From Gemmatimonadaceae bacterium (GTDB taxonomy: Bacteria > Gemmatimonadota > Gemmatimonadetes > Gemmatimonadales > Gemmatimonadaceae), in the NCBI GenBank assembly GCA_036496605.1, contig DASXKV010000041.1:8373-72372 (forward strand): 64,000 nt of DNA. The letters are read 5' to 3'. Within the stretch, counting starts at the first letter, position 1. Each line of letters begins with the position of its first letter. The position numbers and the translations under genes are program-made. The notes below the pieces were generated by a model. That model was not told where the DNA came from. It made no database searches and saw nothing but the letters and a program-made list of their open reading frames with translations. Below are positions 37,436 through 49,452 of the stretch, piece by piece.

Positions 37436-37504
37436 AGTTGGTCGCTGGTGGCTGGTTATCGGTATTTCCGAAGAACCAACCACCAATCACCAATCACCAA
37501 TCAC
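37436..37504. repeat. GGTGGTTGG/CCAACCACC-family hairpin between secY and rplO
   Basis: gttggtcgctggtggctggtt-atcggtatttccgaaga-accaaccaccaatcaccaatcaccaatcac. Confidence 0.7.
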
Positions 37505-37995
37505 TCTTCCACACTGCCCCCGGCCGCCACGATCTTCTCGCGCGCCGATGCACTCATTTTCACGCCGCGCACGGTGACGGGCTTCGGCACCTTGCCGTTC
37601 GCGAGCAGCTTGATCTTGCCGTGATTGCGCCTAACGAGTCCGGCCTCGGCAAGCGACTCCGGCGTCACGTCGCCACTCACCTTCGCGAGATCGTCGAGGC
37701 GGATCACCTCGGCATCCTCGCGGAAGGGATTGGTGAAGCCGCGCTTCGGCAAGCGACGCGTGATCGGCATCTGGCCGCCCTCGAAGGCCGGCTTTCCGCC
37801 GCCCGGACCGTGATGTCCCGAACGCGCCTTGATGCCCTTGTTGCCCTTGCCGGACGTCTTGCCCTTTCCGGAGCCCGGACCGCGACCGATGCGCTTCCGC
37901 TCGCGATGCGACCGGGGAGCCGCCACCAGATTGTGCAGCCCGATCTTCTCGACCTTCTCCGCCTTTTCTACAGTCTTAGCCACAGTTGCCCTCAC
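37501..37995 (-). CDS. rplO: 50S ribosomal protein L15
   Basis: GRGPGSGKGKTSGKG motif and operon position. Confidence 0.95.
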   Translation of the reverse strand: MRATVAKTVEKAEKVEKIGLHNLVAAPRSHRERKRIGRGPGSGKGKTSGKGNKGIKARSGHHGPGGGKPAFEGGQMPITRRLPKRGFTNPFREDAEVIRLDDLAKVSGDVTPESLAEAGLVRRNHGKIKLLANGKVPKPVTVRGVKMSASAREKIVAAGGSVEE

Positions 37996-38246
37996 TCTTC
38001 GACGACGGTCACCTGCACGAGGTGCCGCACTTGCTTGAGCTGCCCCACGAGTGCGGGGTGAATGTCCTTCACGACCTCATGCTGATGATGACGCAGCCCG
38101 ATCGCCTCGAGCGTCGCGCGCATCCGCCAGGAATGACCGATGCCGCTGCGGACCTGCTTGACGCGAACCTGGCCCTTCTCCGGCAACCGAAGGCTCGGTG
38201 TCTTTTTTGGACCGCGCGTCCGGTGCCAAACGAATGTGCGCGGCAT
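37992..38246 (-). CDS. rpmD: 50S ribosomal protein L30 (with ~20-aa N-terminal extension if the ATG at 38246 is used)
   Basis: VKQVRSGIGHSWRMRATLEAIGLR core. TAATG overlap with the rpsE stop. Confidence 0.85.
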   Translation of the reverse strand: MPRTFVWHRTRGPKKTPSLRLPEKGQVRVKQVRSGIGHSWRMRATLEAIGLRHHQHEVVKDIHPALVGQLKQVRHLVQVTVVEE

Positions 38247-39085
38247 TAGACCGCCTCCTTTGACTTCGCACGCGAACGGTACTGAATACTCGACACCTCG
38301 ATACCGCGCTCACGGGCCACCTGTTCCACCGTCGTCAGTTGACGAAGGCCGTCCATCGCCGCTCGTACCATGTTGTGCGGATTCGTGGAGCCCAGACTCT
38401 TGGTCAGAATGTCGGAGATCCCTGCGCACTCCATAATGGCGCGAACGGCGCCGCCGGCGATCACACCGGCACCTGGCGCCGCGGGCTTCATAAGGACGCG
38501 CCCCGCGCCATGCTGACCAATAATCTCGTGCGGGATCGTGTTCCCGGTGAGGGGAACCTCCGTGAGCTTCCGGCGCGCTGCCTCCACTGCCTTGCGGACG
38601 GCTTCGGAGACTTCGTTCGCCTTGCCTGACGCGAATCCGACGCGACCCTGACCGTCGCCGACGGCCACGAGGGCGTTGAAGGAGAAACGCCGGCCGCCCT
38701 TCACGACCTTCGCGACGCGGTTGATGGCGATGACGTTCTCGATGAGATCTCCACCCTCGCGCGAACGTTCCTCGCCACCGCGCCCGCCACGTCCTTCGCG
38801 ACCACCGTGACCACCACGATCGCTGCCGCCCCGATCACCGCCGCCACCACCCGGGCCGCCGCGACCGCGACCGCCACCACCACCGGGACCACCACGGCCG
38901 CCACCGCCGCCGCCACGTCCGCCGCCTGGTCCGCCGCGTCCGCCGCCTGGCCCGCCGCGTCCGCGACCGCCACCGCCGCCGCCGCCGCCCCCGCGCCCAC
39001 CACGGCCGCCACCTGGGCCACCGCCGACGGGGCGTGGACGCTCGGCGCGCTGCGGCTCGCCGCCTGTGCTGTGTGTTTCTGACAT
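38246..39085 (-). CDS. rpsE: 30S ribosomal protein S5 with ~110-aa Gly/Arg-rich (RGG) N-terminal extension
   Basis: Core [36 protein letters not shown]…. Start at MSETHS, 5 nt after the rplR stop. Residues ~20-105 are almost only G/R/P. Confidence 0.9.
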
Positions 39086-39089
39086 GTCT

Positions 39090-39446
39090 TTAGAACTCCA
39101 GCCCGCCCTCGCGGGCACCGTCGGCCAGCGCCTTCACGCGGCCATGATATCGATATCCCGCCCGATCGAACACGACTTTCGTGATACCCGCTTCCTTCGC
39201 GCGCGCGGCGATCCGCTTTCCGACTTCCGACGACTTCTCGGTCTTCTTCCCTTCGATGTCCTGGCTCGTGACCGTCATGAGCGTGCGGTTCGCCGCGTCG
39301 TCGACCAGCTGCGCGTAGATGTGCTTGAGCGAACGGCGAATGACGAGACGCGGGCGATCCTCGGTACCGCTGACCTTTTTCCGAACACGAAGATGGCGAC
39401 GATATCGCCGTTCGACCTTCGTCTTCGGGGGACGCATCACCGGCAT
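39090..39446 (-). CDS. rplR: 50S ribosomal protein L18
   Basis: Sequence pattern and operon position. Confidence 0.95.
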
Positions 39447-39985
39447 TACTTACCTCCTGCCTTGCCCGCCTTACGACGGATCTGTTCACCAGCGTACTTG
39501 ATGCCCTTGCCCTTGTACGGCTCGGGTGGCCGAAGTTGGCGCAGCTCGGCCGCGACCTGTCCGACCATTTCCTTGTCTGCGCCGTCGATAAAGATCTGCG
39601 TCGGCTGCGGCGCGGTCAGCTTGATCCCCGACGGCGCCTTGTACTGCACCGGATGGGAGAAGCCCAGGGCGAGCTGCAGCCCGAATGGCCGGACCTCCGC
39701 CTTGTACCCAACGCCCGAGATCTCGAGCTGCTTCTGATATCCCTTCGTGACGCCCTCGACCATGTTGGCGATGAGCGTTCTCGTTAGGCCGTGGAGCGCC
39801 TTGTGGTTCGGCTCGTCCGACGGACGCGATACCTTGATGGTGTCGTTCTCGACCGCGACCGAAATATCCTGGGCGACCTTGCGCGTCAGCTCGCCTTTCG
39901 GACCCTTGACGCGAATCGTGTTCCCGTCAACGGCAACCGTGACCCCTTTGGGTATGCTGACCGGAAGCTTTCCAATACGTGACAT
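39446..39985 (-). CDS. rplF: 50S ribosomal protein L6
   Basis: [15 protein letters not shown]… and operon position. Confidence 0.95.
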
Positions 39986-39997
39986 CTCAATTCCTCC

Positions 39998-47648: not shown

Positions 47649-47656
47649 GACTAAAA

Positions 47657-47742
47657 AGGGGCTAGGGGTTAGGGGTTAGGGTCTAGGAGAATTCGGACTT
47701 GGGTTTGATCCCTAGCCCCTACTCCCAGAGCCCCTACCCCCT
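47657..47742. repeat. CTAGGGGC-family hairpin between rplC and rpsJ
   Basis: ggggctaggggttaggggttagggtctagg … gggtttgatccctagcccctactcccagagcccctaccccc. Confidence 0.7.
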
Positions 47743-48050
47743 CACTCCACCTTGATTTCCACGTCCACGCCCGCCGGTAGATCCAGCTTCGTGAGGGCGT
47801 CGACCGTTTGCGCGCGCGAGTCGAGAATGTCGATCACGCGCTTGTGCGTCTTCAGCTCGAACTGCTCGCGGGATTTCTTGTCGACGTGTGGCGAGCGGAG
47901 CACCGTCCACCGCTGCGTCTTCGTCGGCAGCGGAATCGGACCGGAGACTTGCGCTCCCGTCTTTTCCGCCGTTCGCACGATGTCCGCCGATGCCTGATCG
48001 ATCACCGCGTGATCGAACGCCTTCAAGCGAATCCGGATTCTGCCAGCCAT
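47742..48050 (-). CDS. rpsJ: 30S ribosomal protein S10
   Basis: [19 protein letters not shown]…, 102 aa. The ORF-track N-terminus is translated repeat. Confidence 0.96.
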
Positions 48051-48067
48051 TTGTGTTTCCGAGAAAT

Positions 48068-48146
48068 GTGGTTGGTTGTTGGTGGTTGGTTGTTGGTGGT
48101 TGGTTGTTGGTGAAAGCACCAACCACCAACCACCAAGCACCCATCA
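48068..48146. repeat. GGTGGTTGG/CCAACCACC-family hairpin between rpsJ and tuf
   Basis: gtggttggttgttggtggttggttgttggtggttggttgTTGGTGaaagCACCAAccaccaaccaccaagcacccatcac. Confidence 0.75.
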
Positions 48147-49346
48147 CTTTAGAATCTTCGTAACAACGCCCGCGCCGACCGTTCGTCCACCCTCGCGGAT
48201 GGCGAAGCGGAGCTGCTCTTCCATGGCGATCGGGATGATCAGCTCGATCGTCATCTGGATGTTGTCGCCGGGCATCACCATCTCCGTGCCCGCCGGCAAT
48301 TCGACGTTTCCAGTCACGTCCGTCGTCCGGAAATAGAACTGCGGGCGATAGCCCTTGAAGAACGGGGTATGGCGGCCGCCCTCTTCCTTCGTCAGGACGT
48401 ACACCTCGGCCTCGAACTTCGTGTGTGGCGGAATCGAGCCCGGCTTCGCCAGCACCATGCCGCGCTCGATGTCCTTCTTGTCGATGCCGCGGAGGAGCAA
48501 GCCGACGTTGTCGCCAGCCTCGCCCTGGTCGAGCAACTTGCGGAACATCTCGACGCCCGTGACGACCGACTTCTTGTCGGCATTGAAGCCGACGAGCTGC
48601 ACTTCCTCGCCGACCTTGATCCGGCCACGCTCGATACGACCCGTCGCGACCGTGCCGCGGCCCGTGATCGAGAACACGTCTTCGACCGGAAGCAGGAAGG
48701 GCTTGTCCGTCTCGCGAACAGGCTGCGGGATGAACGTGTCGAGCGCGTTGCAGAGCTCGTCGATCTTTTCTACCCACTGCTTATCGCCTTTCAGTGCGCC
48801 CGTCGCCGAGCCGCGAATCACCGGCGCTTCGTCGCCGGGGAAGTCGTACTTGCTCAGCAGTTCGCGCACCTCGAGCTCGACGAGGTCGAGGAGCTCGGGG
48901 TCATCGACGAGGTCGCACTTGTTGAGGAACACGACGACCTGCGGCACGTTGACCTGACGAGCGAGCAGAATGTGCTCGCGCGTCTGCGGCATCGGGCCGT
49001 CCACAGCACTCACCACCAGGATCGCGCCGTCCATCTGCGCAGCACCCGTGATCATATTCTTCACGTAGTCAGCGTGCCCCGGGCAGTCGACGTGCGCATA
49101 GTGGCGCTTGGCCGTCTCGTACTCGACGTGGCTGGTCGCGATCGTCAGGATTTTCGTCGCGTCGCGACGCCCCTGCGATTCGGAGGCTTTTGCCACTTCG
49201 TCATAGGGCACGTACTTCGTCCCCCACCCCTTGTCCGCCGACACCTTGGTCAGCGCTGCGGTGAGCGTCGTCTTCCCATGGTCGACGTGGCCGATAGTGC
49301 CGACGTTTACGTGCGGCTTGGTCCGCTCAAACTTTGCCTTTGCCAT
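48144..49346 (-). CDS. tuf: Elongation factor Tu
   Basis: [22 protein letters not shown]; 400 aa. Confidence 0.98.
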
Positions 49347-49359
49347 TTTTCCGATACCC

Positions 49360-49452
49360 GGTTAGTTGGGGTCCTTCTTGGTGGTCGGTCGCTGGTCGTT
49401 GGTAGTTCGTGAATTTGGATTCACTAACCACCAATCACCAACCACCAATCAC
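49360..49452. repeat. GGTGGTTGG/CCAACCACC-family hairpin between tuf and fusA
   Basis: ggttagttggggtccttcttggtggtcggtcgctggtcgttggtagttcGTGAATttggATTCACtaaccaccaatcaccaaccaccaatcac. Confidence 0.75.

Follow-up and report, generated by a model that had tools for sequence, protein, structure and literature searches.

Which process has set long inverted repeats, built from tandem heptamers, between the genes of the fusA-tuf-S10-spc-secY operon of a Gemmatimonadaceae bacterium, and do these repeats serve the host or does it only tolerate them? The question is raised by a stretch of 64,000 nucleotides (hereafter the window; contig DASXKV010000041.1 of assembly GCA_036496605.1, positions 8,373 to 72,372) from a genome described as coming from soil (5.97 Mb in 70 contigs, 64% G+C; G000 in the locus names below), in which the operon lies on the minus strand. 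Six operon spacers, together with one site beyond the operon (27518-27625), had been singled out in an initial annotation as carrying a G/T-rich arm, a complementary A/C-rich arm or one of the two. All seven sites were found in the sequence as described, as were the perfect stems GGTGATTC-ac-GAATCACC, TTGGTG-aaag-CACCAA and GTGAAT-ttgg-ATTCAC. That list was short by two hairpins of another repeat class (GGGGCTA units), at the rpsJ/rplC and secY/adk junctions, and 8 of the 25 operon junctions are occupied. The answer that we favour, with evenly balanced confidence, is that the GT/AC elements are the gene-less, "solo" representatives of a foldback family built from heptamer arrays, which extends over the whole genome, is associated with PF05635 genes and is tolerated after stop codons.

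On the mRNA strand, the elements begin at the stop codon of the upstream gene or a few bases off it and continue with a G/U-rich arm, a short loop and an A/C-rich arm. The arms have a period of 7 nt, with the units TTGGTGG, TTGGTGA, TTGGTTG and CTGGTGG (UUGGUGG, UUGGUGA, UUGGUUG and CUGGUGG on the mRNA), and the loops of the operon hairpins, 3-25 nt in length, hold no open reading frame. The RNA folding energy of each element was compared with that of 200 dinucleotide shuffles (z), and the elements of the window are the following:

37434-37504, minus strand: GT/AC heptamer hairpin between rplO and secY, -35.6 kcal/mol, z -5.2
40438-40550, minus strand: composite hairpin after rpsN and before rpsH, -63.2 kcal/mol, z -6.7
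40486-40508, strand not given: inner module GCCGGCGAGC-loop-GCTCGCGGGC, nested in the rpsN/rpsH heptamer hairpin
41484-41518, minus strand: half element between rplX and rplE, a G-rich array (mRNA strand) alone with no partner arm
44932-45002, minus strand: GT/AC heptamer hairpin between rplB and rpsS, -35.7 kcal/mol, z -5.0
48065-48150, minus strand: GT/AC heptamer hairpin between tuf and rpsJ, -38.6 kcal/mol, z -4.6
49375-49452, minus strand: GT/AC heptamer hairpin between fusA and tuf, -40.3 kcal/mol, z -6.7
27518-27625, strand not given: outlying GT/AC copy beyond the operon, longer and more irregular, -39.6 kcal/mol, z -2.3 (weak)
47655-47745, minus strand: second-class hairpin (GGGGCTA/GGGGTTA units) between rpsJ and rplC, -45.7 kcal/mol, z -2.5
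36003-36068, minus strand: GGGGCTA-class hairpin between secY and adk, whole-spacer fold -52.6 kcal/mol, z -8.3
29765-29843, strand not given: further GGGGCTA-class hairpin
31371-31568, strand not given: 14-nt units GGGCGCGTCGAAAA in a mirrored array, with convergent genes on either side

Five GT/AC hairpins of the operon (rplO/secY, rpsN/rpsH, rplB/rpsS, tuf/rpsJ and fusA/tuf) fold far better than shuffled sequences, none of their 200 shuffles reaching the observed energy. The description of large stem-loops between cistrons therefore stands for these five; it is weak for the outlying copy and fails for the rplX/rplE half element, which has no significant fold against the same number of shuffles (z -0.9). 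For the rpsJ/rplC junction, the whole spacer reaches a z of -5.3. The existence of several pairing registers was confirmed, a given GT arm pairing about equally well with its own AC arm and with that of any other copy. When the possible partners are ranked, the one from the same hairpin does not come out ahead of those from elsewhere, and no copy-specific co-variation of the arms was seen; since the arms pair equally well across copies, co-variation is unusable as an argument for a selected structure. The TGA stop codons of rplO and fusA lie inside the first unit of the hairpins that follow them. At rpsN/rpsH, the outer GT/AC heptamer arms enclose a separate GC-rich inner stem-loop, whose module has 14 copies in the genome, 11 of them within GT/AC hairpins. 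As had been suspected, the open reading frames drawn into the elements (rpsH, rpsS and others) look artefactual, the extended frames overrunning start codons set from homology. Judged by its units, the 31371-31568 array is a long-period relative of the same repeat family. In the same operon, ribosomal protein S5 (window 38772-39049, translation of 291 aa) bears a long Gly/Arg/Pro-rich N-terminal extension coded by GC-rich triplet-period repeats.

The hairpins are not a device particular to this operon: they are one class of a family found over the entire genome. A GT-run followed by an AC-run occurs about 107 times in the whole genome against 3 times for the opposite order, mostly in intergenic positions, and GT/AC hairpins far exceed chance, so that the expectation of further copies elsewhere proved right. 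Intergenic tandem arrays (Tandem Repeats Finder) most commonly have a period of 7 (n = 400), followed by 14 (n = 154) and 21 (n = 113). Altogether, about 500 intergenic arrays have one of these periods, and some 190 or more are paired into hairpins. The periods of coding arrays are mostly multiples of 3, and many weak period-7 arrays also fall within gene calls. The main unit classes of the genome are GGTGGTT, GAGGGTA and GGGGCTA, with at least 126 (GT), 97 and 78 intergenic arms respectively; units of 14 nt (GGGCGCGTCGAG) and 17 nt form additional classes. About 186 well-paired intergenic hairpins were retained, with median values of 28 bp for the stem, 35 nt (five units) for the arm, 5 nt for the loop and 76 nt in total. 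Unit numbers vary widely between hairpins, and each hairpin combines the unit variants in a mosaic of its own. No near-identical copies exist among the 186, the best pairwise identity being 85% and the median of best identity multiplied by coverage about 55.

The order of the arms is strictly kept. Among adjacent pairs of arrays with periods of 7n, 93 run from the G-rich to the C-rich array and none in the reverse order; the corresponding counts are 60 and 0 for strictly periodic hairpins, and 12 to 0 in samples of six relatives. As a G-to-C hairpin reads alike on both strands, this polarity describes how the two arrays are arranged rather than which way they are transcribed; arrays that stand alone favour neither strand relative to genes. 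Chimeric pairs (G000:C6:62092-62176, C46:26258 and C50:56837), in which a G-rich array of one class is followed by a non-complementary C-rich array, cannot form a hairpin yet keep the G-then-C order. Two causes could be proposed: (i) selection against a C-rich, G-free arm which, if transcribed first, would be exposed as a loading site for Rho, whose gene is present in G000; and (ii) an origin in which the G-rich strands would run 5' to 3' towards the centre.

Placement was analysed with our own simple gene calls (4,929 genes, 89% coding). Co-directional genes flank 114 hairpins (3,357 of all spacers genome-wide), convergent genes 48 (748) and divergent genes 20 (754). The 186 hairpins are thus enriched in convergent spacers and depleted in divergent ones; the divergent spacers are also much the longer. 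The median distance from the upstream stop codon to the start of a hairpin is 4 nt, and that from its end to the next start codon 37 nt. Genes adjoining hairpins show a weak shift to ribosomal-protein-like codon use (12.6% versus 9.5% in the top decile), which is statistically significant, tiny in effect and confounded by the crude gene calls.

The arrays are physically linked to genes of the PF05635 family ("23S rRNA intervening-sequence protein", an Avd-like four-helix bundle), of which profile matches identify 11 in G000, 9 being flanked by inverted arrays. The arms of these cassettes are made of GGTGGTT (C30:7178), of GGGGTTA/CTA (C4:41507), which is also the arm class of the rpsJ/rplC hairpin, or of GAGGGTA (C40:40269), while the 14-nt arms of the cassettes at C10:71 and C16:4049 are identical to the window's 31371-31568 array; the other cassette arms are GGGCGAC, a second 14-nt class and a 17-nt class. 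All seven pairs of inverted arrays lying 420-591 nt apart enclose a PF05635 gene. Other cargo genes were considered and rejected, the wider pairs being ordinary genes between two complete hairpins. The association is repeated in relatives, G010 having two frame-shifted copies with GGTGGTT arms and G003 one with GAGGGTA arms. In a maximum likelihood tree of 33 PF05635 proteins, the sequences group by arm type, with a 14-mer clade (100/98), a 17-mer clade (100/99), a pair with long inverted repeats (98/98) and the array-less copies of one conserved locus (100/100); the proteins of C10:71 and C16:4049 form their own 14-mer clade. The protein of the GGTGGTT cassette matches PDB 2GSC, a pentameric four-helix bundle of X. 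campestris (E 5e-20), TIGR02436 and, weakly, DGR Avd. In another relative, G018, a 593-bp cassette with terminal inverted repeats of about 80 bp is present twice at different loci (L174, G018:C46:25215; L180, G018:C109:17345) with 93.6% identity, and no target-site duplication is visible at the ends of this duplicated cassette.

Two further loci deserve mention. The array-less paralogue (G000:C23:13257-13571, with orthologues in G003, G005, G010 and G012) occupies a conserved locus, which lies downstream of the palindrome CTTGTGAAAAATATCACAAG, and forms a long-branch clade; it looks like a stationary, possibly domesticated copy. The sole RVT_1 reverse-transcriptase locus of the genome (G000:C38:192525-193035) matches in two adjacent pieces and may be split or frame-shifted, and a synthesis of the arrays driven by reverse transcriptase would be speculation.

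Orthologous genes were then compared junction by junction in 12 relatives, among which G010, G003 and G005 belong with G000 to one genus. The spacers of the genus are as follows:

fusA/tuf: about 100 nt (G000, G010 and G003)
tuf/rpsJ: 76-94 nt
rpsJ/rplC: 87-99 nt, but 7 nt in G010
rplB/rpsS: 81-89 nt
rpsN/rpsH: 107-151 nt
rplO/secY: 86-92 nt

These expanded spacers fold strongly, with z values mostly from -3.2 to -7.7 and two weaker ones near -2. The rplO/secY hairpin is found in G010, G003 and G005, and the rpsN/rpsH junction of G010 has the same layout of outer arms and inner stem as that of G000; the rpsJ/rplC hairpin is absent from G010. Coupled junctions (rplD/rplW, rplV/rpsC, rplN/rplX and rplF/rplR) stay at -1 to 3 nt. 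Across the family as sampled, 8 members carry a strong hairpin at tuf/rpsJ, made of differing units, and other family genera have hairpins at some of the same junctions; rplB/rpsS is at most 29 nt long in the other sampled genera, except for 62 nt in G014. A tight, hairpin-free tuf/rpsJ spacer is found in G023 and G025, and two order-level relatives have tight spacers across the operon and heptamer hairpins elsewhere in the genome. Contigs end about 0-150 nt from rpsJ in L002, L012, L025 and L029 (G014:C14, G023:C302, G025:C46 and G001:C117), and these breaks near the tuf/rpsJ spacer could be due to a repeat there or to a second tuf copy.

The comparison with related genomes thus confirmed that the same junctions hold hairpins within the genus, but the repeat units differ by genome: the arms are of the GT type xGGTGxx in G000 and G010, mostly AGGTGCT in G003 and G005, and GCGTGAC, GGGRCGC, GAGGGTA or GAGCGNN at the remaining sites. 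The pieces of 5'-untranslated region (5'-UTR) downstream of the hairpins are conserved in the genus while the arms differ, as seen with AGAAGGACCCCAAC before tuf (window 49347-49380, minus strand; conserved in G010 and G003), CCACGTCTCCGGATACGAGAGGAGTT before rpsH and ACGTTTTYC.GGTAGCGTCT before secY. By sequence comparison, then, hairpins have stood at the same junctions since the genus ancestor and their arms have been rewritten within each genome. Since DNA identity between the conserved genes of the congeners is itself only about 85-90%, a complete replacement of the arms does not suffice to prove that elements were swapped; the tendency towards one dominant unit class per genome does indicate that the units are homogenised or spread inside genomes. 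Two other conserved sites adjoin these hairpins. ACGTTTTTCCGGTAGCGTCTT before secY (window 37415-37440, minus strand) is conserved in the genus and includes the only T-run following a hairpin. The motif CCCCCACGTCTCCGGATACGAGAGGAGTT before rpsH (window 40400-40438, minus strand) is kept across the family (G000, G010, G003, G005, G014 and G017) while the adjoining hairpin varies; it has no Rfam match and might serve ribosomal protein S8 as a leader or for autoregulation.

Several known classes of element were considered and rejected. The resemblance to REP elements put forward initially is real in part: like the REP, BIME and REPIN sequences (PMC3333891), the hairpins are high-copy extragenic palindromes, often located just after stop codons and between convergent genes, and they are depleted in divergent spacers. 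Unlike these RAYT-mobilised sequences, their arms are low-complexity tandem repeats and each copy is different; the copies share no palindrome sequence, no conserved core and no GTAG-type head, and a search for PF01797 (Y1) gave 0 matches in the genome while the same control search was positive in 6 known genomes. A copy-and-paste MITE does not fit the best identity between copies (85%) or the lack of a visible target-site duplication. Nor are the hairpins intrinsic terminators: rplO/secY is the sole operon copy with a T5 a few bases downstream, and the 14 terminator-like sites detected, a count equal to the shuffle expectation, never coincide with hairpins. Rfam gave no hit above the gathering score, only microRNA hairpin models below threshold.

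Processing by an RNase had been proposed earlier for these stems. Cutting by RNase III, expected by analogy with rRNA intervening sequences, is unlikely, the gene of this enzyme being undetected in the lineage. According to a review, RNase III is highly conserved across bacteria (PMC3071783). Here, PF14622 and PF00636 have no match in G000 or in 11 of the 12 relatives, the lone match being a contig-end fragment from a bin that is 79% complete and 5% contaminated. TIGR02191 has no match in six genomes of at least 97% completeness and is positive in nine control genomes, and scans by tblastn (with E. coli RNase III as query) and by signature motifs were negative. The negative genomes G000, G003, G010, G012, G020 and G021 are 97-100% complete, which suggests that the order Gemmatimonadales may be without RNase III. 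The 23S rRNA gene is not in the assembly, and the operon elements sit between protein-coding genes.

How could these elements have come to occupy the operon? On the reading proposed at the outset, the hairpins would stand to the cassettes roughly as gene-less derivatives to gene-bearing elements, and would settle directly past stop codons, in spacers without translational coupling. They would form predicted stems of 23-45 bp on the operon mRNA. As the lineage has no detectable RNase III, these stems would stay uncut, and at most they would passively impede 3'-exonucleases and keep ribosomes spaced; the hairpins are probably tolerated rather than required. The hairpins could equally be the target or the by-product of the process that builds the cassette arms. 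Several observations weigh against the proposal. No pair of hairpins exceeds 85% identity and no target-site duplication was seen, which leaves no direct sign of hairpin copy-and-paste. G013 has hairpins at two operon junctions and no PF05635 gene (its array density is 4.1 per 100 kb, against 20.6 in G000). The AGGTGCT-armed cassette that the proposal predicts was found neither in G003 nor in G005 (the latter 81% complete), and over seven genomes the PF05635 copy number is only loosely related to array density. Finally, species whose conserved genes are only about 85-90% identical retain hairpins of similar length and strong fold at the same junctions, which could equally mean selection by the host.

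Host selection is a serious rival because the hairpin sites persist, although we consider it rather unlikely. The hairpins would then be RNA structures that protect against 3'-exonucleases, set boundaries of processing or decay, or attenuate transcription, and so tune the ratios of tuf, secY and ribosomal-protein products; on the mRNA they may act as stabilisers or uncouplers. In agreement with this explanation, fusA/tuf, tuf/rpsJ, rplB/rpsS, rpsN/rpsH and rplO/secY are occupied across the genus by strong folds of differing sequence, the tuf/rpsJ hairpin recurs through the family and in an acidobacterium (see below), the elements lie close against the stop codon without intruding on the conserved 5'-UTR, and the occupation of 8 of 25 operon junctions compares with about 5% of spacers genome-wide (P about 2e-5 by our own arithmetic). 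The enrichment between convergent genes and the codon-use shift point in the same direction, the latter being small. On the other hand, the spacers of this operon are tight in sister genera and in order-level relatives, G010 does without the rpsJ/rplC hairpin, elements of identical type are met in all genomic contexts, beside PF05635 genes among others, and the stems have neither U-tracts, nor an RNase III to process them, nor copy-specific co-variation of their arms.

The closest described repeats are the G-rich heptamers of Xanthomonas (GGGAATC) and Nostoc (GGGGAYT) reported by Rehm et al. in 2015 (PMC4692102). That paper counts 70-75 pairs "in convergent orientation" in Xanthomonas, with a G-rich array leading and its complement following; the repeats lie no more than about 50 bp past a stop codon and are rare between divergent genes, and orthologous genes of different species do not share them. 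Our elements resemble both sets in their tandem 7-nt units, dispersed, mostly intergenic and variable in number, and resemble those of Xanthomonas in the G-first convergent pairs, the placement after stops and the rarity in divergent spacers. They differ from what is described there in that the GGTGGTT/GGTGATT unit has no G3 tracts, in that most copies are paired as hairpins, and in that they fill ribosomal-protein operon junctions of a Gemmatimonadaceae host; their arms also bracket PF05635 genes, and no such gene was found mentioned in the text of that paper that was searched.

A function at the DNA level, through G-quadruplexes, i-motifs, cruciforms or protein-binding arrays affecting replication, transcription or recombination, appears improbable. 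It would account for the G-to-C order of non-complementary neighbours (G000:C6:62092 and C46:26258), the Xanthomonas and Nostoc repeats are reported to form G-quadruplexes and i-motifs in vitro (PMC4692102), and two other classes of the genome, GAGGGTA and GGGGCTA, agree with the G3-4/N3-4 pattern and would have, by sequence, the four or more G3+ tracts that a G-quadruplex calls for. The GT class, by contrast, has GG runs only and no tract of three or more G, which would give at best weak two-tetrad quadruplexes, so that the quadruplex rationale of that paper does not carry over to it; it nevertheless behaves like the G3/G4 classes in placement and polarity. Moreover, the complementary arm lies a few bases away, so that pairing into a hairpin should prevail over a quadruplex, and PF05635 is the sole candidate binding protein. 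The explanation that survives least well, and which we hold to be very improbable, is that of microsatellite-like arrays which grow in place by replication slippage and become palindromes through hairpin-templated repair, with no gene link or function: the different mosaics with none above 85% identity, the widely variable unit numbers and the arms that differ between species amid conserved flanks would suit it, but slippage alone leaves unexplained the dominance of period 7 and its multiples, the 93:0 polarity, the exclusive PF05635 cargo between arrays 420-591 nt apart, the protein clades that track repeat period and the presence of the GGTGGTT hairpin across numerous phyla, over 100-fold more often than by chance.

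The intervening sequences (IVS) of rRNA genes offer a second comparison. The IVS of the Coxiella 23S rRNA has a 28-bp terminal stem and a PF05635 open reading frame, adjoined by tandem GACAGAT heptamers varying in number among strains; it is excised by RNase III and regarded by its authors as a selfish element (PMC4990558). In the literature searched, this paper alone combines a PF05635 gene with heptameric repeats. As in the IVS with an S23p/PF05635 open reading frame (Coxiella, Leptospira and 2GSC-type), the cassettes described here have a foldback layout and a protein matching 2GSC, and the operon elements are bordered by complementary ends which form a long stem. Unlike the IVS, the operon elements have no open reading frame, lie in mRNA spacers and not in rRNA helices, and have arms that are repeat arrays throughout; excision of the IVS relies on RNase III, which is seemingly absent from the lineage studied here. 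REP elements are mRNA stem-loops able to block 3'-exonucleases (PMC3333891). The abundant intergenic TAACTGA heptamers of marine Beggiatoaceae, of which the function is unknown and for which a post-transcriptional role was proposed, are almost all direct (169 sets, one inverted; PMC4679880), whereas our elements are mostly inverted hairpin pairs. Heptamer repeats and convergent pairs are already described in PMC4692102 and PMC4679880.

The GGTGGTT hairpin is not confined to the Gemmatimonadaceae. The pattern GGTGGTTGGTG-N3-33-CACCAACCACC was found at 120 loci at least, against about 1 expected by chance on our own estimate, and the matches listed come from Gemmatimonadaceae, Blastocatellia, Vicinamibacterales, Planctomycetota, Chloroflexota, Acidimicrobiales, Nocardia, Streptomyces, cyanobacteria, Heliomicrobium, Xanthomonadaceae and others. 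Among these matches, two foreign loci lie inside the ribosomal-protein cluster: a hairpin at the tuf/rpsJ junction of a groundwater acidobacterial genome (L047, 4444-4473), and another in a spc cluster between the rpsE and rplO matches, near rpmD (L147, 4916-4964). PF05635 is near the GGTGGTT hairpin in other phyla in 1 of the 120 matches listed, which is the chance level. Reportedly, the cyanobacterial STRR heptamers, said to have been treated by Mazel in 1990 and by Elhai in 2008, are related to the G-rich heptamer class. To our knowledge, neither the cyanobacterial heptamer repeats, known since 1990, nor those of Xanthomonas, since 2015, have an accepted origin or function.

A wider proposal can be made, which we offer tentatively: hairpins and cassettes could together form a foldback superfamily without transposase, spread across many phyla, in which the lineage of the PF05635 protein (an Avd-like pentamer) would dictate the repeat period (7, 14 or 17 nt). 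The 3' ends of the G-rich strands would face the centre, as if two telomere-like ends had been placed head to head; the sites past stop codons, tuf/rpsJ in different phyla among them, would be fixed, and the arms continually rewritten.

What is new in these data is, in the first place, a clean case of heptamer repeats filling defined junctions of the most conserved operon of bacteria, with sites that persist long while the repeat sequence is replaced. To this are added the absolute polarity, with the G-rich arm first, and the link to the PF05635 family, whose clades track the repeat period, a link tested here and repeated in relatives. In practice, such elements break metagenome assemblies and mislead the calling of open reading frames. 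The apparent lack of RNase III removes the usual account of how long RNA stems are handled in the cell, and both the function of the PF05635 "IVS protein" and the origin of heptamer repeats become approachable by experiment. If the superfamily proposal were true, the cyanobacterial STRRs, the G-rich heptamers of Xanthomonas and the intervening sequences of rRNA would have a common origin.

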